Notes under the pieces: model-generated | Told to the model about the DNA's origin: nothing | Database searches by the model: none | Seen by the model: only the letters and a program-made list of their open reading frames with translations | Assembly (NCBI GenBank): GCA_001781125.1 | Contig: MFKT01000018.1 | Coordinates: 4,595-28,594, forward strand | Direction of reading: 5' to 3' | Length of the DNA stretch: 24,000 nt | Origin: Candidatus Kaiserbacteria bacterium RIFCSPHIGHO2_01_FULL_53_29 | GTDB taxonomy: Bacteria; Patescibacteriota; Minisyncoccia; Phycocordibacterales; UBA2100 | Part shown: in pieces, positions 5,785 to 22,301 of the stretch | Layout: every line of letters begins with the position of its first letter | Numbering within the stretch: position 1 is the stretch's first letter | Made by a program: the position numbers and the translations under genes

Positions 5785-6338
5785 GAATCGGTATTTCAGG
5801 AGCCAAGGGTAGCTTCTCGGAAGAGGCTGCGCGAAAATACGCAAGCAAGAATGGGCTTGAAGGATATACGTTGGACTATCTCATTTCGGTCGAGAACGTG
5901 TTGACTGCCCTCGAGAAGGGGACGATCGACCTCGGGATCTTTCCGATAGAGAATCTGACCGGCGGCGCAGTTGCAGAAACAGTCGTGGCAATGCAAAAGC
6001 ACAAATTTCAGAAAAAAAATACGTTCACCATCGATATACGTCAGAACCTTCTTGCCCTCAAAACGACGAAGCGGGAGGAAATTATTACGATCACTTCGCA
6101 TGAGCAAGCGCTGAAGCAATGCGGTGCCTATCTGAAGGCGAAATGGCCAAACGCAAAACTTCAGGAATACGAGGATACTGCTAAGGCTGCAGAAGATCTC
6201 GCGGCAGGGAAGTTGCCGCCATCGACCGCCGTCATCGCCTCGCGTACCGCAGCTGAAGTTTACGGCCTCCAAATTCTTGAGGAATCGATACAGGATCAAA
6301 AAGAAAATCTCACGAGCTTTATTGCTGCGACAAAGTAG
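5781..6338 (+). CDS. pheA: Prephenate dehydratase, catalytic (PDT) domain only; no C-terminal ACT regulatory domain
   Basis: ISGAKGSFSEEAA, GIFPIENLTGGAV, TSHEQALKQCGAYL and ENLTSFI match the PDT domain. The ORF stops at 185 aa, where canonical PheA proteins continue with an ~80-aa ACT domain. Confidence 0.8.
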   Translation: MRIGISGAKGSFSEEAARKYASKNGLEGYTLDYLISVENVLTALEKGTIDLGIFPIENLTGGAVAETVVAMQKHKFQKKNTFTIDIRQNLLALKTTKREEIITITSHEQALKQCGAYLKAKWPNAKLQEYEDTAKAAEDLAAGKLPPSTAVIASRTAAEVYGLQILEESIQDQKENLTSFIAATK

Positions 6339-6341
6339 TCT

Positions 6342-6683
6342 TTATTTTTTCTCGAGAGTCTCGGAGTGATCGAGAATTACTTCAAAGATTTTTCGCGCCG
6401 CTTCTTCGGATATACCCAGATCTTTGGCGACTGCGATTCTTGAACTCATCACCTCATTTCTTCGTTTCTCGTCACGCACTTCAAGGCCTTTTTCTTGCTT
6501 AAGTTTTCCGATCTCAACGACGGATTTAAGGCGCTCTGCAAGCGCCAGAAGAAGTTCTTTATCTGCCGCATCGATCTCGGCGCGCAATCTCTCCAGCTCG
6601 CTTGACCCCGTTAGAGAACTACCTTTCGGGGGTGTGGTTGAGGAATCATCATTCTCTAACGGGGTTGACATAGAGCCCATCAT
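6342..6683 (-). CDS. Monofunctional chorismate mutase (AroQ-class, all-helical) with a Ser/Thr-rich N-terminal extension
   Basis: ELERLRAEIDAADKELLLALAERLKSVVEIGKLKQEKGLEVRDEKRRNEV matches the helix-1/helix-2 signature (R...D..ll.Ll.eR........K....l...d..Re) of AroQ chorismate mutases. It is convergent with pheA, with 3 nt between the stop codons. Confidence 0.8.
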   Translation of the reverse strand: MMGSMSTPLENDDSSTTPPKGSSLTGSSELERLRAEIDAADKELLLALAERLKSVVEIGKLKQEKGLEVRDEKRRNEVMSSRIAVAKDLGISEEAARKIFEVILDHSETLEKK

Positions 6684-6693
6684 ACACTACAAT
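6665..6693 (+). promoter_or_regulatory. Sigma70-type promoter TTGACA-17 nt-TACAAT driving the trp T-box leader
   Basis: TTGACA at 6665-6670, an exact 17-nt spacer, then TACAAT at 6688-6693. It lies inside the first codons of the divergent chorismate mutase gene. Confidence 0.65.
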
Positions 6694-6699
6694 ACCCCT

Positions 6700-6901
6700 T
6701 AGTTAAAGCCTTTGATTCGGGGGATGGGCCCGAATCGTCTATGGACAAGGCGATCTCTGCATGAGTGGAGATCCGGATTCCTCCGTAAAAAGGATAACTG
6801 ATATCTTACGAGAGCCAGTGAGTTATAAATTAAGGTGGTATCGCGGAAACCCGCCCTTATTGCACAAGGTATGATTGTGCAGTGAGGGCGGCTTTCATTT
6901 T
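6700..6901 (+). promoter_or_regulatory. T-box riboswitch leader, candidate specifier UGG (tRNA-Trp)
   Basis: T-box core AAGGUGGUAUCGCGG lies at 6832-6846. The antiterminator is AAGG/CCUU plus the 7-nt bulge UGGUAUC plus GCGG/CCGC. A competing terminator lies at 6851-6901. A Stem I-like helix spans 6708-6751, with UGG-A at 6742-6745 in its 3' internal loop. Stem II spans 6752-6773, an F-box-like CCGUAA lies at 6783-6788, and Stem III spans 6795-6826. Confidence 0.85.
6851..6901 (+). terminator. Intrinsic terminator of the trp T-box leader
   Basis: CCGCCCU (6851-6857) pairs with AGGGCGG (6885-6891). The inner helix is UGCACAA (6861-6867) / UUGUGCA (6875-6881). The tail is CUUUCAUUUU. Confidence 0.8.
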
Positions 6902-6952
6902 GCGATGAGCAAAATGATGTCGCGACGAGCACGATGCGACATAAACTAATCT

Positions 6953-8299
6953 ATGCAATTACCGAAAATAAAAATAGGGCAGAAGCCCACCTACATCAAA
7001 ATCGCGGAGGATGTGGACTTTTTCGGGTTGTTCCAAAAGATCGAACGGGAGTTTGAGACCTGTTTTGTTTTCGAATCTCTCGGTGAAGAAGGGAAATTTT
7101 CCCGCTATTCGATCATTGGGTTTGATCCTACGCATCTTATTTCTGCACGCGGCGACGACCTCATTGTCGATGGCCAGAGCTTCGCGGTGGAAAATCCCTA
7201 TGGCGCACTGCGCAAAATGATGCCACCTCGCGCGATAGGGAAAGAGTATGCGGGTGGCCTTGTGGGATACCTCGGATACGATGCCGTGCGGTATTTCGAG
7301 CCGTCGCTCCACATTAAAACACACGAGCACTTTCCGGCGTTCATGTTTGGTGTCTATACCGACGGCCTCGTTCTCGACAAGCTCACCAACGAGCTCTTCT
7401 ACTTTTACTGCGATACCGATAAGAGCGAGCTTTTGAGGAAAATCATGCACACAACCTACACGAAAGAGCCGCTTACGGTAACGTACATAAAAGACGGCAT
7501 GAGCAAGAAAGAACACGCGACCGCTGTCGAGAGTGTGAAAGAGCTCATCAGAGCAGGCAATACGTTCCAGTGTGAGGTCGGGTTCAAGACGGAATACAAA
7601 GTTTCTGGCGATACGCTGCAAATATATGAGAAGTTGCGCACCGTGAATCCGTCACCCTTTATGTACTATCTCAAATTTGGCACAAAAAAGGTGATAGGGG
7701 CCTCTCCCGAACTTTTGTTCAGCATTCGCGACGGTGAAATGACGACGCGGCCGCTTGCCGGTACCATCAGGAGAGGAAAAGACGACGCAGAAGACCAGCA
7801 GCTTGCGCGCGAACTGGTGAACGACCCGAAGGAGCGTGCGGAGCACACCATGCTCGTCGATCTCCACCGCAACGACATTGGACGCGTCGCGCAATTCGGT
7901 ACGGTCAAGGTCCGCGATCTGATGAATATAAAGAAATTCAGCCACGTCCAGCATATTTCGAGCGAGGTCGTGGGGCTTATTCGCCCCGAAGAAGATATGT
8001 TCTCGGGTCTTGCGGCGAACTTCCCCGCAGGTACCGTTTCCGGCGCGCCGAAGATCGAAACGATAAAGATCATCGACCGTAACGAGCCCGGGCCCAGGGG
8101 TCCGTATGGCGGCGGGGTGGGGCACTTCGGTTTCAATGGCGATTGTACGTTCGCTCTCGCGATACGGTCCCTATTCATTTCTGATACGCAAGCCTTTGCG
8201 CAGACCTCCGGCGGCATTGTCTACGATTCACAGCCGGAAAAGGAATACGAGGAAGTTACCAACAAGCTCGCTGCTATGAAGAAAGTACTTGATGTATGA
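6953..8299 (+). CDS. trpE: Anthranilate synthase component I
   Basis: Full-length TrpE-like, 448 aa: FESLGEEGKFSRYS (Trp feedback region), GASPELLF, RPLAGTIRRG, EHTMLVDLHRND, FPAGTVSGAPK, GPYGGGVG. Confidence 0.95.
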   Translation: MQLPKIKIGQKPTYIKIAEDVDFFGLFQKIEREFETCFVFESLGEEGKFSRYSIIGFDPTHLISARGDDLIVDGQSFAVENPYGALRKMMPPRAIGKEYAGGLVGYLGYDAVRYFEPSLHIKTHEHFPAFMFGVYTDGLVLDKLTNELFYFYCDTDKSELLRKIMHTTYTKEPLTVTYIKDGMSKKEHATAVESVKELIRAGNTFQCEVGFKTEYKVSGDTLQIYEKLRTVNPSPFMYYLKFGTKKVIGASPELLFSIRDGEMTTRPLAGTIRRGKDDAEDQQLARELVNDPKERAEHTMLVDLHRNDIGRVAQFGTVKVRDLMNIKKFSHVQHISSEVVGLIRPEEDMFSGLAANFPAGTVSGAPKIETIKIIDRNEPGPRGPYGGGVGHFGFNGDCTFALAIRSLFISDTQAFAQTSGGIVYDSQPEKEYEEVTNKLAAMKKVLDV

Positions 8300-8892
8300 A
8301 AGTCCTGATCCTCGACAATTACGATTCTTTCACGTTCAATCTCTACCAGTATATAGGGGAGATCTTGACCGCCGGAGGTCAGACCTTTACGCTCGATGTG
8401 GTGCGCAATGATGCGATTTCGATCGATGAGATCAGGAAGCGCACGTACGACAGGATCGTGATTTCTCCAGGGCCCGGTGAACCTTCCGACAGAGCGTATT
8501 TTGGCGTGTGTGCGGACGTCTTGACCATTATTGGCAGGCAGACCCCCGTTCTTGCGGTATGCTTGGGGTTACAGGGTATGGCGCACTATTTTGGCGGAAA
8601 AGTCGTCCGTGCGGAGCTTCCGATGCATGGTAAAGCAAGCACCGTAACGCATGACGGAAAAGGGGTTTTTGAGGGCTTGCCACAGAATCTCAGCGTCATG
8701 CGATATCACTCGCTCATCGCGGAAAAGGAATCACTTCCCGCATGTCTTTCCATCACGGCCACATCCAATGACACCCAGGAGATCATGGGCTTGCGGCATA
8801 CCGAATATCCCATAGAAGGCATCCAGTTCCATCCGGAATCGTTTGCTACGGAGGGCGGAAAGGAGCTCCTGAAAAATTTTCTTCACGTATGA
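8296..8892 (+). CDS. trpG: Anthranilate synthase component II (glutamine amidotransferase)
   Basis: Class-I GATase: ILDNYDSFTFNL, ISPGPG, CLGLQ (catalytic Cys), IQFHPES. ATGA overlaps on both sides. Confidence 0.9.
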   Translation: MKVLILDNYDSFTFNLYQYIGEILTAGGQTFTLDVVRNDAISIDEIRKRTYDRIVISPGPGEPSDRAYFGVCADVLTIIGRQTPVLAVCLGLQGMAHYFGGKVVRAELPMHGKASTVTHDGKGVFEGLPQNLSVMRYHSLIAEKESLPACLSITATSNDTQEIMGLRHTEYPIEGIQFHPESFATEGGKELLKNFLHV

Positions 8893-9902
8893 ATTCCGTC
8901 GAACTTCTTAACGCATTGATCGAGGGGAAAGACCTGAACGCGTCAGACACGCAGGAGTTTTTTAATGCGGTCGTGCGCGGGGAGATCCCTCCCGCGCAGA
9001 TCGCCGGCATCCTCGTGGCGCTTCGCATCAAAGGGGAGAGTGTTGAAGAGATTGAAGGCTTGGTGCGGGCGATGCGTTCCCACATGGTGAAGGTGGATGC
9101 CCCCGGTGCGATCGATATCGTTGGCACGGGCGGCGGGGAAGTCGATCCGTTCAATATCTCAACTGCGGCGGCCCTTATCGCCACTGGTGCAGGGGCTAAG
9201 CTTGCAAAGCACGGCAATCGGGCGGCGTCAAGCAAGTGCGGTAGCGCTGATGTGCTGGAAGCACTCGGTGTGAATATTCAAGTCTCTGCTGAGCAAGCGT
9301 CGAATGTTTTCAAGAACGCGGGGATCGTTTTTCTATTCGCTCCTACGTACCACCCGGCGACGAAAAACGTGGTTGTCGTACGTAAGGAGTTAAAGATCCG
9401 CACCATCTTCAATGTGCTTGGACCGTTCGCGAACCCCGCGGGAGCGAGGCGTCAGCTCGTCGGCGTTCCAAATCCAGATGTTGCGAAAAAGATGATGGAA
9501 GTGGCGAAGAATCTCGACTACGAGCGCCTCATCATCGTTACGTCAGGGGGAATGGATGAGATAAGTATTGTCGGGAAAACACAGGCACTGGAACTCTCGG
9601 AAGGAAAGATGCGCGAATTCGAGATAGATCCGAGCACGTTCGGTTTCAGCGGAAAGAAAGAAGATCTCGCCAGCGGCGATGCACAGACGAATGCAGCGAC
9701 CATTCGCGACATTCTCAAAGGAGAAAAAGGTCCCAAGCGCGATGTTGTGGTATTGAACGCTGCATACGGTCTCTATGTGGCCGGGGTAGCCAAGACACCC
9801 GAGGAGGGAATAAAAGAGGCTGAAGAATCAATCGACAGCGGCAAGGCGGCGGCGGCGCTCGAAGCCCTGATACGCGAAACGCAGAAGTACAAACCCGTAT
9901 GA
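8889..9902 (+). CDS. trpD: Anthranilate phosphoribosyltransferase
   Basis: DIVGTGGGEVDPFNISTAAALIA, KHGNRAASSKCGSADVLEALG and FNVLGPFANPA are TrpD hallmarks; 337 aa. Confidence 0.95.
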   Translation: MNSVELLNALIEGKDLNASDTQEFFNAVVRGEIPPAQIAGILVALRIKGESVEEIEGLVRAMRSHMVKVDAPGAIDIVGTGGGEVDPFNISTAAALIATGAGAKLAKHGNRAASSKCGSADVLEALGVNIQVSAEQASNVFKNAGIVFLFAPTYHPATKNVVVVRKELKIRTIFNVLGPFANPAGARRQLVGVPNPDVAKKMMEVAKNLDYERLIIVTSGGMDEISIVGKTQALELSEGKMREFEIDPSTFGFSGKKEDLASGDAQTNAATIRDILKGEKGPKRDVVVLNAAYGLYVAGVAKTPEEGIKEAEESIDSGKAAAALEALIRETQKYKPV

Positions 9903-11722
9903 AAGTCCTAAAAGTCATTCCCATTAAAAAACCTCTTGACGCCGAAGTAGCCATTCCCGGTTCTAAAAGTTACACCAACAGAGCGCTCCTCATGGCCGCA
10001 CTTTCGGGAAATACAGTGCGCATCAAAAATCCACTCATAAGTGAAGACACTGAGGCGATGATCGGCTGCCTGCGCGAGCTCGGTATTGCCTGTACGCTCG
10101 AAGACGGGCTCGTTACCGTTGCGGGCGGCATCGATTTGGTCAGTGACCGCGAATACAATCTCGATGCGAATCTCTCTGGGACCACGATCAGATTTATCTC
10201 GGCACTCTCGGCTCTAGTTCCCGGGACAAAGACCATTCATGGTAAGCCTCGTCTCAATGAGCGCCCGATCTACGATCTTGTAGATGCATTGCGGCAGCTC
10301 GGAGCCTCGATCGAGTACCTTGACCGGGAAGGCTACCCGCCTATTCGTATCTCGTCTTCGGAGCTTTCTGCGGGAGTAGTCAAAATGAAAGGAGAAGTAA
10401 GTAGTCAATTCCTGTCGGCACTTCTTATGGTGGCGCCCCGCATCGGCGACGTTGAAATACATATTGAGGGTGAACAGATATCAAAACCCTATGTAGACAT
10501 GACCATCGACGCTATGAAGCAATGTGGTGTTACCGTTGTCAACGATCAGTATGCGAAATATCGAATTACGGCAGGAGCAAAATACAAAATGACCGAGTAC
10601 GTGGTAGAGGGTGATGTTTCAAGCGCGTCCTACTTTGCAGCTATCGCGGCTTTGACCGGATCGCGTATTACGCTCAAGAATATGAATCCGCAGTCAGTAC
10701 AGGCGGATATGGGATTTCTTACCATCCTCGCCGGTATGGGGAACGAGATCACGAATGGGGAGAATGAGATAACGATACAGGGCCGTGGCGTAAGGGCGGT
10801 TGATGTCGACATGCGGGGTTGTCCCGATCAGGTACAGACGCTCGCCGTTCTCTCCGCATTCGTGTCGGGCATTACGTCGATCTCCGGCGTGCGTTCGCTA
10901 CGAGTAAAAGAGACGGAACGTGTCGCGGCGCTTGAGCGGGAACTTGCGAAGATGGGCGTACAGGCAGAATCGACCCCCGACACGCTCACCATCCATGGGC
11001 GTGCGCCGAGGCCCGCGGTGATCGACACCTACTGGGATCATCGGATGGCGATGGCGTTTACGGTTGCGGGGACGAAACTGGAGGGCATGGAGATCAGGAA
11101 TCCGGACGTCGTCGGGAAGACGTTCCCCGACTTTTGGGAGAAACTCAATTCGATCGGCATCAAGACGGAAATTTCCGAGCGGGAACCAAATATTGTGCTA
11201 ATAGGGATGCGCGGAAGCGGGAAGACAACGATCGCAAAAATGCTTTCCACCCGTCTGCAGCGCACCAGCATCGAGATAGACGACGAAGTCGTAAAGAAAA
11301 CAGGAATGAGCATCGCCGATATCTTTGCGCATCACGGAGCGGAATATTTCAGGAACAAGGAGTCCGAAGTAGTGGATGAAATGCTGGCAAAAGAGAATAC
11401 CATCATCTCTACCGGAGGCGGGACCATATTGCGACCCCACAACATCGAACAGCTCAAATACAACGCCATCTGTTTCTGGCTGCGGGCTCCCGTCGAAGCC
11501 CTGGTAGAGAGAATGGAGAGTGATCCCTCATCGTCGCAGCAGCGGCCCACTCTCACGGACAAGGAGACACCCGAGGAAGAAACTGCGGAAGTATTGCGAC
11601 AGCGGGAGGCGTTGTATCAAAAAGCCGCGGATGAGGTCGTGGATACCCAGAATAAGAACCCGGGGGGGATCGTCGAAGAGGTATTACTCAAATTGAAAGC
11701 GCGCGGAATTAACGTACAATAA
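9899..11722 (+). CDS. aroA-aroK: Fusion protein: EPSP synthase (residues ~1-425) plus shikimate kinase (residues ~431-607)
   Basis: The N-terminal part has [47 protein letters not shown] and DHRMAMAF (AroA). From nt ~11189 the sequence [14 protein letters not shown] (Walker A), STGGG and RPTL matches AroK. It is one uninterrupted 607-codon frame. Confidence 0.9.
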
Positions 11723-11729
11723 AGTGATT

Positions 11730-12812
11730 ATGGCAGGGAACAGCTTCGGACAATTATTTCGGATAACGACCTTCGGCGAATCGCACGGCGGTGCTGTCGG
11801 CGTTGTGCTCGATGGTTGCCCGCCGGGTATTGAGATTACCGAGGAAGAGATCCAGAAGCAACTCGACCGGCGTCGACCCGGACAGAGCAAAATAACGACG
11901 CCGCGCAAGGAGGCCGACCGCATCAAGATACTTTCGGGATACTTCGAGGGCAAAACGACCGGTACGCCGATGCTCCTCATCGCTTACAACGAAGAATACG
12001 AATCCGACGATTACCTCGAGCTCAAAGAGGCCTACCGGCCCTCACATGCCGACTTTACGTATGAGGCCAAGTACGGTTTCCGCGATTGGCGGGGAAGTGG
12101 TCGCGCTTCTGCGCGCGAGACCCTCGCGCGCGTCGCCGCCGCCGCAGTCGCCCAAAAATACCTAAAGGAGAAACTCGGTATCGAGATCTTGAGCTATGTC
12201 GATCAAGTCGGTGATATTAAAGCCGACATTGATTTTAATACTGTGACACCAGAACAGATAGAATCCAATATCATCCGCTGTCCGGATCAGAGTGCAGCGG
12301 AGAAAATGATAGCCCTCGTCGAGAAGGTGAAAGCCGAGGGGGATTCCATCGGCGGCGTTATTCAGGGTGTCATCCGCAACGTCCCTGCAGGCCTCGGTGA
12401 GCCGGTCTTCGACAAAATTCCCGCCGATCTTGCAAAAGCGATGATGAGTATCAATGCGGTGAAGGGATTCGAGATCGGTTCGGGCTTCGCGGGCGTGTCG
12501 CAACGGGGAAGCGAACACAACGACCCCTTTGAGATACGCGATGGGGAGATCCGCACCAAGACCAACAACGCCGGAGGCACATACGGCGGTATTTCTAGCG
12601 GCGAAACTATCCACTTCCGCGTCGCGTTCAAGCCGGTTTCAACGATTAAAAAAGAGCAAGATACGGTGAATCGTAAGAAAGAGGCCGTCAAACTCTCTGC
12701 GGCGGGCCGTCACGACCCATGCGTCCTCCCCCGCGCCGTCCCGATTGTGGACGCGATGAGTGCTCTGGTAATCATGGATCACTATCTCCGCAACAAAGCA
12801 CAGAACGGTTGA
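11730..12812 (+). CDS. aroC: Chorismate synthase
   Basis: [35 protein letters not shown]-like [12 protein letters not shown] and GGISSGE. I prefer ATG 11730 over the upstream in-frame GTG 11724. Confidence 0.95.
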
Positions 12813-12824
12813 CCAGCGTCGCCT

Positions 12825-13583
12825 TCAGAAACCGAGCAGGAGCTTGAGACCCAAGATGCCGCCCACGATGACAAAGAGTGTTTTGATGAATTTGTTGCCC
12901 TTGTAGCGTGCATAGCGTGAGCCGATGTACGCGCCGACCATAGAACCTAAAATCGCTAAGATTGCGAGCTGTATATCGAAGTATCCTTTGCTGATGAGGA
13001 ACGCTGCGCTGAAAATTGACCACGGAAGTACGATAAGGTAGTAATGGCCAAGTCCGTCAATAAAATCAAAACCTCGTGTGTAAAAAGTGAGTATCGAAAG
13101 AGCGATTGCATTACCGACCCCAAGAATCAGTTCGTAGAATCCCATCACAAGCGCAAAAGGATACGCGTATATCCCGCGTGACTTCGAATATTCTCTTTTT
13201 TCCTGAAGCCCTATATCTTTATTGAAATAGAGATACACGACGAACAAGAGAATTATCACACCAATGCAGATTTGGTATATACGTGGTTGCACGGTGAGTA
13301 TCGCAGCTATACCCAGATAACATCCGATGAGACCGATACCGCTAAAAAGAAGGACGAACATCCAATCCACCTTCCGCCCCTTAAGATAATTGTAAGCAGC
13401 GGGCATTGTCCAGAATACGTTTGTCGTAAAAGCCGTGGAAATAATTATGGGGATGGGAATACCAAGCGATATGAAAACGGGGTACATAATTATCTCCAGC
13501 CCACCGCCCGACATTGTGCCCAATACCGTGGCAGCGATAGCCGTGAAGAATACGGCTACCATGCCCAAGGCATCCAACTCCAT
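12825..13583 (-). CDS. TauE/SafE-family (DUF81) anion permease-like membrane protein
   Basis: 252 aa with ~7-8 hydrophobic helices. It has the Gly-rich N-terminal motif TMSGGGLEI and a C-terminal repeat typical of TauE/SafE. An extended -10 TGATATCAT (13598..13590) lies 6 nt upstream of the ATG. Confidence 0.7.
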   Translation of the reverse strand: MELDALGMVAVFFTAIAATVLGTMSGGGLEIIMYPVFISLGIPIPIIISTAFTTNVFWTMPAAYNYLKGRKVDWMFVLLFSGIGLIGCYLGIAAILTVQPRIYQICIGVIILLFVVYLYFNKDIGLQEKREYSKSRGIYAYPFALVMGFYELILGVGNAIALSILTFYTRGFDFIDGLGHYYLIVLPWSIFSAAFLISKGYFDIQLAILAILGSMVGAYIGSRYARYKGNKFIKTLFVIVGGILGLKLLLGF

Positions 13584-13613
13584 CGCTCAATGATATCAGA
13601 GGAAACAATACCC

Positions 13614-13655
13614 ATATCATCCTAGCTCACGCGGCCACGTGAGCTAGGATGATAT
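13614..13655 (-). terminator. Perfect 18-bp stem / 6-nt loop hairpin downstream of trpA (probable terminator of trpCBA; possibly also an operator for the permease gene)
   Basis: ATATCATCCTAGCTCACG (13614-13631) and CGTGAGCTAGGATGATAT (13638-13655) are exact reverse complements. The T-rich flank is CTTTCTTTTTT on + and only a weak GGGUAUUGUUU on -. Confidence 0.55.
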
Positions 13656-13677
13656 CTACTATTCGCTCCTTTCTTTT

Positions 13678-14511
13678 TTACTCCGTTTGGATTATTTCTC
13701 GAATTGTTTTTTCAACGGTCCCAATCCCCGAAGCCTTGATCGCATCCACAAATACACTGCCGGCGATGACGATGTCGGCTATTTTTGCGAGCGACTGGAC
13801 GTCCTCTTTTGATTTCACGCCGAAACCGACGGCAAGGGGAAGATTGAAGACGCGTTTGGCGAGGGTGGCAAAGTCTGCGAGATCTTTGGCAAATTTGCTG
13901 GTGGCACCCGTGATACCTTGTCGCGAGGTGCAATAGACAAAGCCGAGCAAGTCTTTTCCTCCAGAGGAGGATCCGCCTCCGGCGGAGGCGAGTTGTTTCA
14001 GTCGCTCTTCCGGTACTCCCGGCGAGACGACGGGGATGAAACAAATATTGTTTTCTTTACACGCAGCGATGAGCGCCTGACCTTCTTCGGTATCAAATGG
14101 GCAATCGGGGACGATAAGCGCGCTCGCTCCAGCATCAGCGATTGTTTTTACGAATTTCGGAATACCGTATCTGAAAACCGGGTTGGTATAACTCATCACC
14201 GCAACGGGTTTTCCGAACGCGGCGACTTTTTTAAGGAGTTCGAGCGATTTGGCGACCGTCGCACCTGCTTTTAGGGCGTCTTCGCTTGCAACAGCAATTG
14301 TCGGGCCGTCGGCCATGGGGTCCGAGAAGGGGATCTGCAGTTCGATAATATCCGCGCCGCCTTTCACCAGTGCCTGCGCAACTTGTTCAGACTCACTGTC
14401 GCTTCGATATCCAGCGATCATGTGTGCCATAAAAAAGGGCTTGCCACTTTTTACCCTGAGCAAAGTTGAAGGGTCTCCAAGCAGTGTCTGCAACTTATTC
14501 ATACCGGCCAT
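13678..14511 (-). CDS. trpA: Tryptophan synthase alpha chain carrying an 11-residue Gly/Ser insertion
   Basis: ELQIPFSDPMADGPTI, MSYTNP, GFVYCTSRQGITG and GFGVKSKED are TrpA motifs. I chose start ATG 14511 (MAGMNKL...), which overlaps the end of trpB; ATG 14502 is an alternative. The longer ORF extending to 14562 is probably upstream read-through. Confidence 0.9.
   Translation of the reverse strand: MAGMNKLQTLLGDPSTLLRVKSGKPFFMAHMIAGYRSDSESEQVAQALVKGGADIIELQIPFSDPMADGPTIAVASEDALKAGATVAKSLELLKKVAAFGKPVAVMSYTNPVFRYGIPKFVKTIADAGASALIVPDCPFDTEEGQALIAACKENNICFIPVVSPGVPEERLKQLASAGGGSSSGGKDLLGFVYCTSRQGITGATSKFAKDLADFATLAKRVFNLPLAVGFGVKSKEDVQSLAKIADIVIAGSVFVDAIKASGIGTVEKTIREIIQTE
13953..13987. repeat. 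Copy 1 of an exact 35-bp repeat (in frame within trpA, encodes SAGGGSSSGGK)
   Basis: cttttcctccagaggaggatccgcctccggcggag is identical to 20472-20506. Both copies have the same orientation and sit in the same reading frame relative to their host genes. Confidence 0.95.
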
Positions 14512-15706
14512 ACTCGTCTTTGAGAAACTCTCGGAAACTTTCGTCCTTGAAAGCACGCGCAAAGTTGAAGAGATCTTTGTCGCCGCGTCCGGAAAGCGTC
14601 GCGACGATGATGGAATCTTTCGGCATTTTCGGAGCGATTTTTTGCACGTGCGCTAGTGCATGCGCACTTTCAAGTGCGGAAATGACGCCTTCGAGCTTTG
14701 CAAAAAAGTCGACCGCGGCGACAGCTTCATCATCAGTCGCGTACGTGAGCTCGACTCGCCCTTCGGCATGTAGATTGGCAAGTTCCGGCCCGATTCCCGG
14801 ATAATCAAGCCCAGCAGAGATCGAATGCGTAGGCGCTATCTGTCCGTCTTCTGTTTGCAGAAAGAGTGATTTATAACCTTGGAAAATGCCTTCCGCGCCG
14901 CTAAGCACACGTGAAGCGTGTTCACCAAGCTTTTTGCCCCGCCCTCCTGCCTCCACTCCGATGAGTTGAACACTTTTTTCATGTATAAAATCGTCGAAAC
15001 TTCCCATCGCATTAGAGCCGCCCCCGACACAGGCAACAACTACGTCCGGCGGTTTTCCTTCACGCTCTTGCAGCTGCGCACGTATCTCGCGCGAGATCAC
15101 CGACTGGAAATAACGGTTCATCGACGGATAGGGTTTTGGTCCGACGACACTGCCGATGACAAAGTATGCTTCGTCTAAGTTCTCCATCCAGAATTTGAGC
15201 GCCTCATTCACCGCGTCTTTGAGGGTTTTTGTCCCGTATTCTACTGGCACTACGGTTGCGCCGAGCCTCTCCATCAAGAAGACATTCGGACGCTGGCGCT
15301 CCATATCGATGCGGCCCATAAAGATCTTGCAGGAAAAACCGAGCTTCGCAGCCACCGTTGCGGTGGCAACACCGTGCTGTCCGGCACCGGTATCGGCGAT
15401 AAGCATTTTCTTACCGAGTCTTTTTGCGATGAGCGCCTGTCCGAGGCAGTGGGTGATCTTGTGCGCGCCCGTGTGGTTTGCGCCCTCGTTCTTGAGGTAG
15501 ATTTTCGCGCCCCCGAGCTCCTCGGTCGCGCGCGCGGCGAAGATAAGCGGCGTCGGGCGGCCCGAATAGTTCTTCAGTAAGTTCTCGAATTCGCTTTTGA
15601 ACGCAGTGTCTTTCTTAGCGTTCTCAAATTCAGCGTCGAGTTTCTGCAGTGTCTCCCAGAGCATTTCGGGTACGTACGCTCCCCCGTATGTATGTTTTTC
15701 ACTCAT
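14495..15706 (-). CDS. trpB: Tryptophan synthase beta chain
   Basis: HTGAHKITH (PLP lysine), GAGQHG, VGGGSNAMG and SISAGLDYPG; 403 aa. ATGA overlap with trpC. Confidence 0.95.
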   Translation of the reverse strand: MSEKHTYGGAYVPEMLWETLQKLDAEFENAKKDTAFKSEFENLLKNYSGRPTPLIFAARATEELGGAKIYLKNEGANHTGAHKITHCLGQALIAKRLGKKMLIADTGAGQHGVATATVAAKLGFSCKIFMGRIDMERQRPNVFLMERLGATVVPVEYGTKTLKDAVNEALKFWMENLDEAYFVIGSVVGPKPYPSMNRYFQSVISREIRAQLQEREGKPPDVVVACVGGGSNAMGSFDDFIHEKSVQLIGVEAGGRGKKLGEHASRVLSGAEGIFQGYKSLFLQTEDGQIAPTHSISAGLDYPGIGPELANLHAEGRVELTYATDDEAVAAVDFFAKLEGVISALESAHALAHVQKIAPKMPKDSIIVATLSGRGDKDLFNFARAFKDESFREFLKDEYGRYE

Positions 15707-16482
15707 AGCATTGCTTGTTTCAATTCATGTATTTTTGCAAGGGGATCGGATGATTTCAAGATGGAGGTTCCTACAAGAATACCCCGCGCCCCGGCTTTGC
15801 GCACTCTCCGCACATCCTCGGCGTTCTCGATGCCCGACTCGCTTATCATCGGTATTTTTTTTGGAATGAGGTGGGTGAGCGTCTCGGTGACAGCCAAGTC
15901 AACTTGGAGCGTCTGCAAATCTCGGTTGTTGATCCCGATCACTTCCGAGCCGGCCGCAAGAGCTTTCGCGACTTCGATCTGATTGTGCACCTCAACAAGA
16001 CTGTTCATGTGGAGCTTTTTTCCTAGGTCGATGAGATGTATAAGCTCGTCTACCTTCAATATGTTTGCAATAAGAAGAAATGCATCGGCTCCACTAAGGA
16101 GCGTCTCGTACACCTGATATTCGTCAACAATAAAATCCTTACGCAATATTGCCTGCGGCACTCGCGCTTTGACTCGTTTGAGCAATTCGATGTCGCCGCC
16201 AAAATATGGCTTGTCGGTCAGGACCGAAATCACATCCGCCGAGCTTTTTGCGTAGAGGTCGGCAATATCAAGCGGAGGCTCCGTAATGAGCATACCCTCC
16301 GACGGGGATTTGGGTTTTATCTCGGCGATAAGGACACTCCCGCGATCAAAGAGCTTTCTGAATGATCGTCGTTCAGTTTTGAAGCTTTCGGCCTCCTTTT
16401 GCAGCACCTCAAGCGGTCGAGCCGCCTTGATGGCTTCGATTTCAAGGCGCTTTTTTGCCACTATTTCATCCAAAATAGTCAT
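15703..16482 (-). CDS. trpC: Indole-3-glycerol phosphate synthase
   Basis: IAEIKPKSPS, ISVLTD..YFGG, LRKDFI, IGINNRDL and ESGI motifs; 259 aa. Confidence 0.95.
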   Translation of the reverse strand: MTILDEIVAKKRLEIEAIKAARPLEVLQKEAESFKTERRSFRKLFDRGSVLIAEIKPKSPSEGMLITEPPLDIADLYAKSSADVISVLTDKPYFGGDIELLKRVKARVPQAILRKDFIVDEYQVYETLLSGADAFLLIANILKVDELIHLIDLGKKLHMNSLVEVHNQIEVAKALAAGSEVIGINNRDLQTLQVDLAVTETLTHLIPKKIPMISESGIENAEDVRRVRKAGARGILVGTSILKSSDPLAKIHELKQAML

Positions 16483-16502
16483 ATCCGTAGTATACTCGCC
16501 AC

Positions 16503-17150
16503 ATGACCAGAGTGAAAATCTGCGGCATCAAGAGCGCCGAAGACGCACAAGCCGTAGCAGCGTTTGGCGCCGATGAGCTTGGATTCCACGTCAAATTGAA
16601 CGGCGGGCGCTCGCCACTCGAAGCGGATGTGGCAAAAGCACTGGTCGGTGCACTTCCAAAGAGTTCGGCGGGTGTTGTTGTGACAAGTCTCACCGATGCG
16701 AAAGAATTGATCGAAATTGCGCAAGCGACCGGAGCTTCAACGCTGCAGCTGTATGGCGATGCGACGCCGGAGACGATACGGGAGTTTAAGAAGGCGTTGC
16801 CAGAAGTAAAAATTTGGAAAGTGTTGAACGTATCCGACGAGAACTCAATTGAGAAAGCGAAAGAATACGAAGACGCGGCGGATGCAATCGCTCTCGATAC
16901 GCTCAACAAAGCAACGGGTGTGCGCGGGGGGACGGGGAAGACCCACGATTGGAGTATCAGCAAAAGAATAGTCGAATCAATCTCAATTCCCGTCATTCTC
17001 GCGGGGGGCCTCAATCCCGATAATATCGCGGAAGCCATCCGCACCGTTCGCCCATATGGTGTAGATGTAAACTCCGGCGTTTCCAACCCCGACGGCTCAA
17101 AAGACCTCGAAAAAGTCAAACTATTTATCGAGCGCGCCAGAAATCTATAG
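16503..17150 (+). CDS. trpF: Phosphoribosylanthranilate isomerase
   Basis: MTRVKICGI, LQLYGD, GGTGKTHDW, ILAGGLNPDN and GVDVNSG; 215 aa. It is divergent from trpC with only a 20-nt spacer. Confidence 0.9.
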   Translation: MTRVKICGIKSAEDAQAVAAFGADELGFHVKLNGGRSPLEADVAKALVGALPKSSAGVVVTSLTDAKELIEIAQATGASTLQLYGDATPETIREFKKALPEVKIWKVLNVSDENSIEKAKEYEDAADAIALDTLNKATGVRGGTGKTHDWSISKRIVESISIPVILAGGLNPDNIAEAIRTVRPYGVDVNSGVSNPDGSKDLEKVKLFIERARNL

Positions 17151-17241
17151 TCAGTGGCGAACTTGCAGAGAGAGAGTTCGTGGTATTCATTGCTCGGACA
17201 AGAGAGTCCGAAATTTCCCGTTAACAGCGAGGGTGAAAGCC

Positions 17242-17733
17242 ATGGCACGCAAAGACAGAGATGCCCGCCTGCAGGCGGAGGCTACCGAAATTGCCCAAAA
17301 TTTGAACGGCTGGGCAATTCACAACGACATTCTCAATGCGGGCGAGGTCATCGTCTACGATGCCCGAGTCGAGAAGATCTCGGTTGTCCGGCCAGCCGAG
17401 AGACCGATGGCGACCGAGGAATTCTCGATCAAAGGCCGGAAGGATCGGGGCGTCGAGTTCGTACGCCCTGCCCGAATGACCTCCGACCAGGTTCAGCGGT
17501 TGTTGAGTAAATTGACACTCAGCTCCCGCGAATTCATGCAGGAATTGCTGGTTGAAAAGCGCAACAATCCTACGAACATCAACGAGTTCGGGAACGCTAA
17601 TGATCATCTTGGACATTTCCGAGGCGTCGTCAACGGAGTATTCCGTAACTGCACGATCGGTGGAAAGCACTACCGTTTGGCGACCGATCGGCGCGCGATC
17701 CAACTTTGGGAGGTGAAGCAGATCAAAAAATGA
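17242..17733 (+). CDS. Hypothetical protein (~163 aa), no family recognised
   Basis: Coding-like RNY/G-first codon pattern. GAGGG (17229-17233) lies 8 nt upstream of ATG 17242; the listed ORF start, GTG 17233, falls inside that RBS. The antisense 160-aa ORF is less coding-like. Confidence 0.55.
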   Translation: MARKDRDARLQAEATEIAQNLNGWAIHNDILNAGEVIVYDARVEKISVVRPAERPMATEEFSIKGRKDRGVEFVRPARMTSDQVQRLLSKLTLSSREFMQELLVEKRNNPTNINEFGNANDHLGHFRGVVNGVFRNCTIGGKHYRLATDRRAIQLWEVKQIKK

Positions 17734-17862
17734 TGCGCCTCGGCATCGAAAACGTGAGATCCGCTTCAGTAGTGGGTCTTGGCGGGGTTGGCGGTAATCC
17801 TCGAAACCGTATGTTTACCGATGTGTATCGGTACTGATGAGCTCAAAAGAGCGAAACATAAA

Positions 17863-18963
17863 TTATCGAAGCGACTCAAGGGTTTTTTCGACGACCGTAT
17901 CTTCTACGGGGTGCGCAAACTGACCGTCTTTTTGGTAGACGGAGCCGATTTTTTCCAGGAGCACGTACTGCACAAGACCGCCGCGGACTTTTTTGTCGCC
18001 TTTTGTCGCCGCGATTATGTCGGAAACTTGGAATTTCTTAATCGGTTCTGCAGTGATGTCGAAATGTGAAAGGTATTCTGCGACGAACGTCTTATCTTCC
18101 GGAGAAAGAATCCCGAGCAGCTCGGATATTTTCGACTCGACGAGTATTCCGTACGCGACTGCGTACCCGTGCCGTATTGTGTAGCCCGAGAGCAGTTCTA
18201 TCGCGTGTCCGATGGTATGGCCGAAATTCAGTATTCGGCGCTCGTTCTGCTCGCGCTCGTCACGCATCGCGACGCCGACTTTTATCTCGATGGAGCGGCA
18301 CACGACGTTCATAAGGGCTTCTTTTGTCGAAAGCGGATCGTCGAGGTTTATTTTTTTTACCACTTCAAGTCCCACAGCATCGGAAGTGAGGAATTCCTTA
18401 ATTGCCTCAATAAGACCGTTCACCACATGTTCGCGCGGAAGTTTCGAGAGGAATTGCAGGTCGGAAATGACGGCGTGCGGCAGATAAAATGCACCGACGG
18501 TATTTTTCCCGAAGGGCGTGTCGATGCCCACTTTGCCTCCAACGGAGCTATCAACCATGGCGAGGAGTGTGGTCGGCATTTGAATGTACGGCACACCGCG
18601 CAGATAAGTGGCCGCAACGTATCCGGCGACATCTCCCACCACCCCGCCACCAAGGGCGATGATGAGGCTGTTACGCCCGTAGCGTTTTTCGAGGAGCGAA
18701 TGCTGCAGACTTGTCACCGTTTCTTGGTGCTTATTGCCCTCGCCCTCGGCAAAAGAAAATATCTCGGCGGGTATGCCTAATTTCTGTATGAGCGAAAGGA
18801 CCTTGTCGCCCCAGAGCTGTGCGGTCGTGGAATCCGCAATGATGACTACTGTTTCCGGAGCGGCGCTCTTGATCGCGGCGAGCACTTCGCTCTCGAGACT
18901 TAGCCCAACCGTTATGGGACATTCCGCGCCCTGTGTCTTCAGGACTATTGTTCGCGGTGTCAT
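17863..18963 (-). CDS. aroB: 3-dehydroquinate synthase
   Basis: LGGGVVGDVAGYVAATYLRG, PTTLLAMVDSSVGGK, LNFGHTIGHAIE; 366 aa. Confidence 0.95.
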   Translation of the reverse strand: MTPRTIVLKTQGAECPITVGLSLESEVLAAIKSAAPETVVIIADSTTAQLWGDKVLSLIQKLGIPAEIFSFAEGEGNKHQETVTSLQHSLLEKRYGRNSLIIALGGGVVGDVAGYVAATYLRGVPYIQMPTTLLAMVDSSVGGKVGIDTPFGKNTVGAFYLPHAVISDLQFLSKLPREHVVNGLIEAIKEFLTSDAVGLEVVKKINLDDPLSTKEALMNVVCRSIEIKVGVAMRDEREQNERRILNFGHTIGHAIELLSGYTIRHGYAVAYGILVESKISELLGILSPEDKTFVAEYLSHFDITAEPIKKFQVSDIIAATKGDKKVRGGLVQYVLLEKIGSVYQKDGQFAHPVEDTVVEKTLESLR

Positions 18964-20003
18964 AGGCCTCGTGCAGCAGCAACTTCTCTTATAATGTTTT
19001 CTGTTGATTCCCAGCCGAGACAGGGGTCCGTGATGGAAAGCCCGCCGCGATCAATCGTTTCCGGTGTTGTTGATTCGAGCTTCTGACTACCTTCCTTGAG
19101 GAAGCTTTCTATCATGAATCCTTTGACGAGGCGGCGGTATTCCGCGTCGGCCTGCATGAACGCAAGCGATTCCCTTACGACCTCGCTCTGCCGCCCGGAG
19201 ACCTTCACGCCGTCGACCTTGCAGTTGTCGTGGCTCGCATCAATGATAATGGCAGGATTTTTCACTTTGTGTTTTTCGAAAAGCGCTCCGGCCTTGTGCA
19301 CGTGTGCGGGATCGTAATTGGAGCCGCGGAAGCCGCCGCGCAGCACGAGGTGTGCAAACGGGTTGCCAGTAGTCTCGATCTGGTTGCCATCGAAAGTTGT
19401 GTGATGCGGATGCTGCGCGGCGACGATGCCGTTGACCGCGATCTCGATGGAGCCGCTCGTTGCATTTTTCATACCGACAGGGCAGTCAGCTGCGGAGGCG
19501 AAGATGCGGTGTTCCTGATCCTCCACACTGCGCGCGCCGATGGCCATCCACGAGAGAAGCTCGGCGAATCCTTTCGCGTTGTGTGTGAAGAGCGCTTCAT
19601 CGGCGATGGGGAGCCCCATCTCAATGATCTTCACCATCATGTCGCGGCAGTATTCGGCCCCTTTTGCGATATCGGGCGACTCGAACGGATCGGGTTGATT
19701 CACCGGCCCGAGCCAGCCGCGGATGGTGCGGGGCTTTTGGATATAGACCCGCATGACAATTTTGATCGAATCTTTGACCTCGTCAGAGAGCTTTTTGAGA
19801 CGCTCCGCAAAGGTAAGGACTGCCTCGGACGGCCATGCGGAACAGGGACCGGCGATAAAGAGAAGACGCTTGTCCTCGCCGGAAAGAATTGCTCCGACTT
19901 CTTTGCGGTCCTGAAGTACTTGCGCCTCGCCTTTTTGGGAGAGGGGATGACGCGCGATTATTCTCTCGACAGTCGGCATTTTTTGTATGATTTTGTAGCT
20001 CAT
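18960..20003 (-). CDS. aroG: 3-deoxy-7-phosphoheptulonate (DAHP) synthase, class I-alpha (AroG/F/H-like)
   Basis: From MSYKIIQKMPTVERI the sequence is collinear with E. coli AroG: IAGPCS, IVMRVYIQKPRT.RGW.G, WMAIGARSVEDQEHR, CPVGMKN, IIDASHDN, GKSITDPCLGWE-like. The 84 upstream codons of the listed ORF are Arg/Ser-rich and overlap aroE. Confidence 0.9.
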   Translation of the reverse strand: MSYKIIQKMPTVERIIARHPLSQKGEAQVLQDRKEVGAILSGEDKRLLFIAGPCSAWPSEAVLTFAERLKKLSDEVKDSIKIVMRVYIQKPRTIRGWLGPVNQPDPFESPDIAKGAEYCRDMMVKIIEMGLPIADEALFTHNAKGFAELLSWMAIGARSVEDQEHRIFASAADCPVGMKNATSGSIEIAVNGIVAAQHPHHTTFDGNQIETTGNPFAHLVLRGGFRGSNYDPAHVHKAGALFEKHKVKNPAIIIDASHDNCKVDGVKVSGRQSEVVRESLAFMQADAEYRRLVKGFMIESFLKEGSQKLESTTPETIDRGGLSITDPCLGWESTENIIREVAAARGL

Positions 20004-20016
20004 AGATGTTCGTAGA

Positions 20017-20859
20017 TTACAGCCCTCGTAACTTGTTCTCGAGGAGCTCTGTATAGTCTCCGGCGATATCTCTCCCAAGCCACAGGCGTTCCTGCTCGAG
20101 GCCTTGTGCGAGGAACATGACGAGGCCGGAGATGGCGCGCGCGCCGCGTGCATCGGCGGTGCGCAGGAGCTTGGTCTCAAGCGGGCTGTAGACAAGATCG
20201 AAGACCGCCGTCTCTTTTTGGATGATCTCCTCCGGTACCGGCATCGCGTCAACATTTGGCGACATACCGATGGGGGTTGCGTTCACGATGACATCGAAGG
20301 GTTGCTTCGCGAAGTCCTCCGTTTCGATGAACGTGCCGTCGAATGCTTTGCAGAGAACCTCTGCTTGTGCCCGATCGCGATTGTGGCAGAAGATATGCGC
20401 GCCCTCGCGATGCAGATGGTATGCAACCGTCAGTGCGGCGCCTCCGGCACCCACGAGAAGCACGTTTGCGCCTTTTCCTCCAGAGGAGGATCCGCCTCCG
20501 GCGGAGAGGTCAACTCCAGAAAGTGCAGCCGCGATGCCTTTCACGTCTGTATTGAATCCGGTGAGCTTACCGTCCCGGTTCACTACCGTGTTGACTGCGC
20601 CGATATCGCGCGCGGTTGCGTCGATCTCGTCAAGGAGCGGCATGATCGTTTGTTTGTGAGGCATCGTCACTGCCGCAAGATGGATCGGCAGTGCGCGTAC
20701 CGCGGCGACCAATACAGAGATATCAGGATTACCAAAAGCGAGCATGACCGCATCGACGCCTTCTTTTTGGTAGATGGCATTGTGTAGCAGAGGACTCAGG
20801 CTGTGCGTGACAGGATTGCCCATAATAGCCGTCAGTTTTGTTGCGGGAGAGATGGTCAT
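20017..20859 (-). CDS. aroE: Shikimate dehydrogenase carrying the same 11-residue Gly/Ser insertion just before the NADP-binding GAGGA motif
   Basis: GNPVTHSLSPLLHN, VTMPHK, GAVNTV, GFNTD, LLVGAGGAA; 280 aa. Confidence 0.9.
   Translation of the reverse strand: MTISPATKLTAIMGNPVTHSLSPLLHNAIYQKEGVDAVMLAFGNPDISVLVAAVRALPIHLAAVTMPHKQTIMPLLDEIDATARDIGAVNTVVNRDGKLTGFNTDVKGIAAALSGVDLSAGGGSSSGGKGANVLLVGAGGAALTVAYHLHREGAHIFCHNRDRAQAEVLCKAFDGTFIETEDFAKQPFDVIVNATPIGMSPNVDAMPVPEEIIQKETAVFDLVYSPLETKLLRTADARGARAISGLVMFLAQGLEQERLWLGRDIAGDYTELLENKLRGL
20472..20506. repeat. Copy 2 of the exact 35-bp repeat (in frame within aroE, encodes SAGGGSSSGGK)
   Basis: Identical to 13953-13987 and contains GGATCC. The NTD-to-GAGGA spacing is ~8 residues longer than in E. 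coli AroE. Confidence 0.95.
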
Positions 20860-20860
20860 A

Positions 20861-20992
20861 CCCGGCTAGTACAATTTCGAATAATTACCACCGCAGTTGT
20901 AACCACGAACGTTTTCAATACGCCCTGGTCAATGCTTCTTGTCATACGCTGATGGATATTCATACAAGGTAATTCGAAATTGTCCTGCCGGG
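20861..20992 (-). repeat. Imperfect long-range inverted repeat filling the aroQ-aroE spacer
   Basis: The left arm cccggctagtacaatttcgaataattacc (20861-20889) pairs with the right arm ggtaattcgaaattgtcctgccggg (20968-20992). The arms share the blocks CCCGGC, ACAATTTCGAAT and TACC and enclose ~78 nt. Confidence 0.6.
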
Positions 20993-20997
20993 CATAT

Positions 20998-21435
20998 CTA
21001 TTTCGTCAGATGCGCCTGCAGTGTCGCAACCGCTTCGACGTAGCCTGCTTCCTTTTTCCCTGCGATCATTGCGATACACGCCGGTGCGGTCACCGAGATC
21101 TTTCTCCAGTCTTCGCGTGAATTGATGTCGGAGAGATGCACCTCGACGCAGGGCAGATCGGTATCGACGAGCGCATCGTGGAGCGCGTAGCTGTAGTGCG
21201 TGAATGCGCCAAGGTTCGCAATGATGCCGGCAGCGTCTGTCGCCTCGGCCTGCAAGAAGTCGATGAGCGCGCCCTCGTGATTCGATTGAAATGCTTTGAC
21301 CGTGTGGCCTATTCTTTGCGCTTCGGCCGCAACGAGCGCCTCAATATCGGCAAGCGTCTTCGTGCCGTACTGCGCCGCATCGCGTTTGCCGAGGCGGTTC
21401 AGGTTGGGTCCGTGGATAAGTAGTATCGTGGCCAT
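20998..21435 (-). CDS. aroQ: 3-dehydroquinate dehydratase, type II
   Basis: ILLIHGPNLNRLG, QSNHEGALID, NLGAFTHYSYAL, VEVHLSDI; 145 aa. Confidence 0.95.
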   Translation of the reverse strand: MATILLIHGPNLNRLGKRDAAQYGTKTLADIEALVAAEAQRIGHTVKAFQSNHEGALIDFLQAEATDAAGIIANLGAFTHYSYALHDALVDTDLPCVEVHLSDINSREDWRKISVTAPACIAMIAGKKEAGYVEAVATLQAHLTK

Positions 21436-22069: not shown

Positions 22070-22301
22070 TACGCAAATACAAAAATCCGCCCTTACAACA
22101 CGAATACACTTCGTGTAGTAAGGGCGGATTTCTTCCGCGGTGCCACCTTTTTTCTTCTTACTCCGACTATACGTCGGAGTTACCTCTATTACGGGAGAAC
22201 CCCGAGATACCACTTGCGCAGTACCTTACCTGCCGCGTCAGACGCGGACAATTCGGCCCGAACCCCGGCCAGTGCCGGGAACCGAATCTAAGGCTTTTAC
22301 T
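22070..22301 (-). promoter_or_regulatory. Second T-box riboswitch leader (amino-acid specificity not assignable by eye)
   Basis: On the minus-strand RNA, the T-box core AAGGUGGCACCGCGG lies at 22149..22135. The antiterminator is AAGG/CCUU plus the 7-nt bulge UGGCACC plus GCGG/CCGC. The competing terminator, AAAUCCGCCCUUAC...GUAAGGGCGGAUUU followed by UUUUUGUAUUUG, spans 22131..22071. Upstream lie the Stem III hairpin ACUCCGAC-GUAUA-GUCGGAGU, an F-box-like CCGUAA, and a 5' segment AAAGCCUUAGAUUCGG homologous to the trp T-box. Confidence 0.8.

Follow-up and report, generated by a model that had tools for sequence, protein, structure and literature searches.

The window analysed here, a stretch of 24,000 nucleotides whose homologues place the source organism in Candidatus Kaiserbacteria (CPR/Patescibacteria), contains the 35-nt string CTTTTCCTCCAGAGGAGGATCCGCCTCCGGCGGAG exactly twice, at 13953-13987 and at 20472-20506. 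The copies lie in trpA and aroE, both on the minus strand, and both are read in one frame as SAGGGSSSGGK. None of 100 dinucleotide-preserving shuffles matched the repeat with up to three mismatches allowed, confirming the exact second copy of an in-frame 35-bp element that a preliminary description of this DNA had placed in aroE. The host genes and the parts of the repeat are as follows:

20017-20859, minus strand: aroE, shikimate dehydrogenase (280 aa), the host gene
20476-20505, minus strand: 30-nt element in aroE, TCCGCC-GGA-GGCGGA-TCCTCC-TCT-GGAGGA on the gene strand, encoding S119-G128 (SAGGGSSSGG); supported by a 10-codon gap in orthologues and by the fold
20491-20505, minus strand: hairpin 1, TCCGCC GGA GGCGGA, the 5′ half on the gene strand; stem position 4:12 covaries in the family
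20476-20490, minus strand: hairpin 2, TCCTCC TCT GGAGGA, a compensated G:C to T:A stem variant
20473-20475, minus strand: native AAA (Lys129), the target-site flank directly 3′ of the aroE insert; AAG or AAA in insert-free orthologues
13678-14511, minus strand: trpA, tryptophan synthase alpha (277 aa), the second host gene
13957-13986, minus strand: identical 30-nt element in trpA, oriented as in aroE and followed by a native AAA at 13954-13956

The insert in aroE and trpA

The boundaries of the inserted unit can be read from empty sites in relatives. The filled aroE site, CTC-(30 nt)-AAA, corresponds to CTC-AAA in L130, CTT-AAG in L126 and CTT-CGC in L128, and the filled trpA site, GCC-(30 nt)-AAA, corresponds to GCC-AAA in the syntenic relative L126; these codon-level empty sites define an inserted unit of exactly 30 nt (10 codons) without target-site duplication. 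On the gene strand the element is preceded by C and followed by AAA G, where the AAA codon is native and one chance-identical base per end (C and G) inflates the repeat to 35 nt. The two copies are identical over the 30 nt, and their flanks show no homology beyond AAA. The aroE DNA on either side of the insert is GTTGACCTC and AAAGGCGCA, and joining the two directly yields the empty site. The insertion proposed for aroE is thus real, but its size is 30 nt and not 35 or 33 nt as first described.

An alignment of 27 AroE proteins shows an exact 10-residue gap opposite SAGGGSSSGG in 24 of the 26 close relatives, and the Leu before and the Lys after the insert are conserved in all 24. The preliminary description had itself raised the possibility that this loop is typical of the family in the lineage; with 24 of 26 orthologues lacking it, this is not the case. 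The remaining two relatives, the Kaiserbacteria proteins of L128 and L130, carry a related insert elsewhere, after PIGM (between ATG and AAG), and these two orthologous inserts differ from each other at 6 of 30 positions, a compensated pair included. Target-site duplication is absent at all three sites compared at the codon level, namely aroE, trpA and the PIGM site in L128/L130.

The identical AroE protein with the insert is found in 13 contigs from several independent aquifer metagenome assemblies, which marks the insert as a natural population feature and not an assembly artefact or an engineered linker. It is present in all members of the AroE and TrpA 90% clusters, so that no empty allele within the species was found among these members. 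One TrpA cluster member, P0127, equals the window allele to just past the insert and then continues with an L126-like C-terminal half; the switch reflects either recombination between alleles or a chimera in the contig.

AroE comprises the Shikimate_dh_N and Rossmann domains (Pfam PF08501/PF01488). Residues 106-136 lie between the NTD motif and the GAGGA loop, a spacing of 31 residues versus 21 in Kaiserbacteria orthologues; the E. coli enzyme has 23. The AF2 model has a mean pLDDT of 91.4 and a pTM of 0.89, and the only residues below pLDDT 50 are 122-126, within the insert, which lies between helix 105-112 and strand 132-136, the strand leading into the GAGGA loop. From this model we infer that the substrate-binding domain and the Rossmann strand are separated by an added loop of 10 disordered residues. 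The orthologue gap and the model together support the interdomain linker position originally suggested. The predicted peptides spanning the insert are ...GVDLSAGGGSSSGGK and GIAAALSGVDLSAGGGSSSGGK, while the junction without it reads ...GVDLK. As had been claimed, the frame and the catalytic motifs are intact: the motifs are invariant in the alignment and the fold is undisturbed in the model, and AroE with the insert is probably still a working enzyme.

The surrounding DNA has features of its own. Positions 5781-21435 form a near-complete aromatic-amino-acid gene cluster in a Kaiserbacteria genome, with genes for prephenate dehydratase and chorismate mutase, trpEGD, an aroA-aroK fusion, aroC, trpABCF, aroB, DAHP synthase, aroE and aroQ; aromatic-amino-acid biosynthesis is usually considered missing from CPR bacteria. 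Between aroB and trpF there is a 160-aa ORF (17221-17703, minus strand) that has no Pfam match and is missing from the otherwise syntenic L126. Two near-perfect palindromes, a spacer-free one with 21-nt arms just 3′ of trpA (13614-13655) and one with 22-nt arms and a 5-nt loop (22083-22131), may be terminators or other hairpin repeats.

A dispersed family of twin-hairpin elements

The degenerate pattern TCCKCCNNNGGMGGATCCKCCNNNGGMGGA was scanned over one genome per species (596 Gb) and found at 119 loci or more, where about 0.03-0.07 would be expected in a calculation that assumes equal base frequencies. A reversed-sequence null gave no match at up to five stem mismatches, versus 145 in the real loci. 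Among the matches listed, all are metagenome-assembled genomes (MAGs) and roughly half belong to CPR lineages (Kaiser-, Sacchari-, Doudna-, Lipton-, Moran-, Uhr-, Campbell- and Giovannonibacteria, among others); the remaining labels include Omnitrophota, Kiritimatiellae, Lentisphaerae, Planctomycetales, Elusimicrobia, Ignavibacteriota, Chloroflexota, "Gammaproteobacteria" and more, with the proviso that NCBI taxon labels can be imprecise for MAGs and that bins may be contaminated. Some host proteins have a type IX secretion sorting domain (L055, with homologues in L040 and L088); since this secretion system is characteristic of the Bacteroidota-Ignavibacteriota group, the copies in them argue for genuine hosts outside the CPR. 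The search pattern fixed the stems, and the apparent sequence conservation across phyla is therefore partly a retrieval effect.

The exact 30-mer of the window occurs at 32 or more further distinct metagenome sites, from several aquifers and other habitats and on contigs of 34-57% GC; these counts are lower bounds, as the scan missed the window's own aroE and trpA contigs, which are known in JGI and ENA data. Only two matches were found among 2.9 million viral contigs, and GenBank phages and PLSDB plasmids gave no convincing match to the element; carriage by phages or plasmids was rejected on these grounds. Rfam 15 had no match at gathering score in the window, and around the element only scores of 15 bits or less. 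The literature searched gave no description of the element, with coverage that was incomplete and an earlier description possible; matches to the core sequence were PCR primers only. That two hosts belong to one pathway had seemed unusual whatever the origin of the element. The simplest explanation is coincidence, since the window is an aromatic-amino-acid cluster and the element belongs to a dispersed repeat family found in many genes.

The 30-mer consists of two abutting hairpins with 6-bp stems and 3-nt loops, with GGATCC at their junction. This architecture and the broad distribution were missed when the insertion itself was correctly recognised. Folded as single-stranded DNA, the 35-nt repeat (the element with five flanking nucleotides) has a dG of -11 kcal/mol and a z of -3.5 versus shuffles. 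The family consensus is TCCGCC-nRA-GGCGGA-TCCGCC-TYn-GGCGGA, with a central palindrome around GGATCC, and the central 14-bp palindrome AGGCGGATCCGCCT is nearly invariant across the family copies analysed. Loop 1 ends in A (A9) in 120 of 126 copies, and loop 2 begins with T (T22) in 120 of 126; other loop positions vary, mainly by transitions. At the stem positions left free by the search pattern (one per hairpin) we counted 229 G:C pairs, 10 T:A pairs and 9 mismatches (odds ratio 127, p 1e-11), whereas alternative pairing as one long 30-nt hairpin is far weaker (odds ratio 8). Stem pairs are among the strongest mutual-information signals, and the TCCTCC...GGAGGA of the window is one compensated stem variant. 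No convincing mutual information beyond the stem pairs was detected for loop-to-flank pairing of the guide/target kind. Single 15-nt units are rare and mostly remnants of degraded doubles, a permuted loop order is very rare, and no triple arrays were found among the loci analysed. At L143, L157, L166 and L169 the 30-mer sits inside a larger intergenic composite repeat (AATTGCYGATTG, element, AAAGAYTGCCTGCCTGTGCGGG...) that adjoins another hairpin.

The flanks show a preference as well. Of the 126 copies counted among the matches listed, 102 have T at -2 and 97 have A at +2, and A is favoured at +1/+2. The preference is equally present in non-coding copies, which indicates that it acts on DNA and not through selection on the protein. 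TT on the left or AA on the right accompanies 83% of copies (one-sided in 43 and 39, both in 22, neither in 22); the two are negatively associated and linked to the asymmetry of the loops. One 30-mer was seen with either flank type, and the observations suggest that the polarity of insertion relative to the flank is a tendency and no rule. Orientation was not associated with local GC skew (p 0.40) in 8-kb windows, a weak test.

About two thirds of the copies among the matches listed (88 of 129) fall within open frames 150 or more codons long. Phase 0, which reads S-A-x-G-G-S-A-x-G-G, is used by 77 of these 88 intragenic copies (88%), where a third would be expected by chance, and the share rises to 64 of 68 (94%) once copies within 30 codons of an upstream stop are set aside. 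Near-palindromy means that either orientation gives the same type of peptide in phase 0; the other two phases would encode Pro/Asp-rich or Arg-rich peptides. Among the 77 coding copies, 53 encode Ser at the second loop codon, and copies with TGA in both loops are found only in contexts without a long open frame. The phase bias, the Ser loop codons and the confinement of stop-bearing loops to DNA outside long frames point to ordinary translation of the element and purifying selection on its phase, as far as sequence can tell. The host genes include dnaG, uvrA, tsaD, cysS, a class II aminoacyl-tRNA synthetase, folD, rpe and an amylase, among others, and homologues of folD, uvrA, cysS, tsaD and rpe show exact 10-residue gaps opposite the insert. 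The dnaG genes of L034 and L007 carry separate inserts at different positions. For annotation, the family explains the recurrent "SAxGGSAxGG" loops in MAG proteins.

Copying, movement and alternative explanations

Four of eight pairs of copies within one locus are identical, versus 3.8% of pairs between loci; a segmental duplication accounts for one of the four. Lineage-specific variants are common to the copies of one genome, and this within-genome likeness matches the prediction of copying from resident copies. One 748-codon ORF of an Elusimicrobia MAG (L012) contains one 30-mer twice, at 1400 and 1808 and in opposite orientations; the copies read SSKGGSASGG and SAGGGSAFGG and have an uncompensated stem mismatch in common. 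The dnaG orthologues of L034/L147, L138 and L154 carry an identical 30-mer at one site, in a sample biased by retrieval through exact match, and their flanks have 30-61% ungapped identity over 240 nt, an underestimate owing to indels. Such identity is not predicted for a decaying selfish insert, and a hot spot, gene conversion or selective constraint could be needed to account for it.

The search for a mobilising enzyme covered the genes around the copies. All-against-all BLAST of 2,432 ORFs from about 120 loci revealed no recurrent neighbour gene, the largest protein cluster spanning seven loci, and in a Pfam scan of 150 ORFs adjoining non-coding copies neither a nuclease nor a transposase family was enriched. 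Neither the ORFs of the roughly 120 loci (up to 8 kb each) nor the window contained a RAYT (Y1 transposase), and no TnpA was found among the ORFs of the loci analysed; the window had no candidate mobilising gene, its unannotated ORFs having no Pfam match. A GIY-YIG nuclease was considered as mobiliser and rejected, as it occurs at only three loci and the genes are flanked by a different hairpin repeat. These small genes (L008, 4690-5124; L038, 3418-3714; L095, 1003-1380) lie next to a G+C-rich hairpin repeat of the form GTCATTCCCGCGAAAGCGGGAATCC, which may be a second hairpin-element family with a candidate nuclease.

We consider it likely that the segment arrived by insertion and belongs to a mobile repeat family, as a non-autonomous miniature element. 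The filled sites show a precise 30-nt block, without target-site duplication, and they tend to have T at -2 and A at +1/+2. Its length, a multiple of three, and its near-palindromic sequence would give S-A-x-G-G-S-A-x-G-G in one phase whichever way it inserts; within genes, insertions would survive only in this linker-coding phase and in surface loops, and phase and loop tolerance together would allow even essential genes to be colonised in gene-dense genomes. Movement could proceed through single-stranded DNA hairpins with an enzyme supplied in trans, in the peel-and-paste manner of REP/RAYT or IS200/IS605 systems. Such movement fits the covarying stems and the absence of both target-site duplication and terminal inverted repeats other than the hairpins, though a hairpin-specific single-strand mechanism is, by analogy, a possibility that we regard as doubtful. 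Somewhat below an even chance we place the fuller proposal of a hitherto undescribed kind of mobile DNA, ultra-small at 30 nt and possibly the smallest known unit of transposition. It would be spread over CPR/Patescibacteria and further phyla of uncultured bacteria, travel as a twin hairpin of single-stranded DNA with an enzyme supplied in trans, encode a benign, flexible linker in either orientation and so persist in essential genes of streamlined genomes with almost no intergenic space.

The strongest competing explanation, which we judge unlikely, is that the element is functional and retained, as a dyad-symmetric protein-binding site or as a recombination or DNA-uptake signal, and that its insertion into genes is incidental. 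The near invariance of the 14-bp palindrome and of A9 and T22 speaks for retention, as do the presence of one 30-mer at so many sites in organisms of such different GC content and the dnaG-site 30-mer that is identical in three lineages despite far greater divergence of their flanks; CPR bacteria, moreover, are thought to depend on DNA uptake. Known uptake sequences, however, arise by point substitutions and are species-specific, whereas here there are clean 30-nt insertions across phyla. The differences between the AroE inserts of L128 and L130 mean that there is no general constraint, the stems were fixed by the search pattern, and any binding protein is putative.

Far less probable is that the 30 nt are never translated, and that ribosomal bypass of the kind seen in T4 gene 60 and the byps, or excision from the mRNA, restores a wild-type AroE. 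The insert is byp-like in being a short G+C-rich hairpin in coding DNA, and GGA codons recur in it, but neither bypass nor splicing would impose a phase or avoid stops, and 88-94% of intragenic copies keep a single Ser/Ala/Gly phase. The preponderance of Ser at the second loop codon and the restriction of loops with stops on both strands to DNA outside genes weigh in the same direction; the aroE and trpA junctions lack a matched take-off/landing codon pair, and no Rfam family matches. GGATCC amid Gly/Ser codons resembles a cloning linker with a BamHI site, and all matches listed are MAGs, so that an assembly or library product or a synthetic Gly-Ser linker had to be considered. It was rejected, and we give it almost no credence: one allele recurs in 13 contigs from independent samples and assemblers, the family occupies hundreds of sites with differing native flanks, variable loops and compensated stems, and an artefact would not be expected to show a phase bias. 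Plasmid and phage collections have no convincing match, and in the literature searched the core sequence was matched by PCR primers only. Hardly more credible is a lineage-typical loop, a convergent low-complexity expansion by slippage, or a conversion event between the aroE and trpA genes. Proteins often have Gly/Ser-rich loops, but this one is missing from the orthologues, whose alignments refute these readings. The 30 nucleotides are moreover identical in unrelated genes that have no flanking homology beyond AAA, and the hairpin architecture is conserved and no tandem repeat.

If the mobile-repeat reading is true, compact symbiotic genomes are still open to selfish DNA that is small enough for essential enzymes, and a hairpin-specific DNA-handling enzyme circulates among uncultured lineages. 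The hundreds of natural 10-residue Gly/Ser insertions would then be a record of tolerated sites for protein engineers, and the 30-mer could mark horizontal exchange among uncultured lineages.

Comparison with known repeat and insertion systems

Several known systems resemble the element in part. REPs are imperfect palindromes or hairpins of 20-40 nt that are alike within a genome and do not encode their own enzyme. The element resembles REPs and BIMEs in size class, hairpins, within-genome similarity and lack of coding capacity for an enzyme, and the composite repeats of L143, L157 and L166 recall the mosaic intergenic arrays of enterobacteria. REPs are by definition extragenic and species-specific and have a GTAG-like conserved 5′ tetranucleotide, whereas the element is mainly intragenic and crosses phyla, and no RAYT was seen at its loci. 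The IS200/IS605 family is characterised by hairpins in place of terminal inverted repeats, by insertion without target-site duplication and by a short preferred flank. The element is like this family and the PATEs in having neither target-site duplication nor terminal inverted repeats beyond its hairpins, and in its flank preference. Known elements of the IS200/IS605 type are much longer, however, and require guide and cleavage sequences outside the hairpins; IS608 has a strict target orientation, whereas the 30-nt element shows only a tendency, and the weak test against local GC skew detected no strand bias.

Classical MITEs (Correia, ERIC, Nezha and others) are dispersed non-autonomous repeats that can form in-frame fusions (PMC10969869). 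They have terminal inverted repeats and target-site duplications and are typically at least 50 bp long, whereas the element has no duplication. Short, mobile G+C-rich hairpin insertions in coding DNA are also known from T4 gene 60 and from the byps of Magnusiomyces mitochondria (PMC5009743; bioRxiv 10.1101/2022.08.31.505936). Those inserts are skipped by ribosomes and may contain stops, whereas the phase and codons of the element indicate ordinary translation.

Rickettsia palindromic elements (RPEs) are palindromic repeats found in frame in unrelated and often essential genes, where the extra peptide fits the host fold (PMC10969869). The element shares with them in-frame insertion into coding genes and a peptide predicted to be translated, as judged by the prevalence of phase 0 and the 10-residue gaps. 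RPEs measure about 100-150 bp, form some ten families and do not extend beyond Rickettsia and its relatives; the element, at 30 bp, has about a fifth of their size, is spread over several phyla and yields one peptide type from both orientations. Membership among the RPEs is excluded by size alone; no sequence resemblance is apparent. In behaviour, the element is closest to the RPEs.
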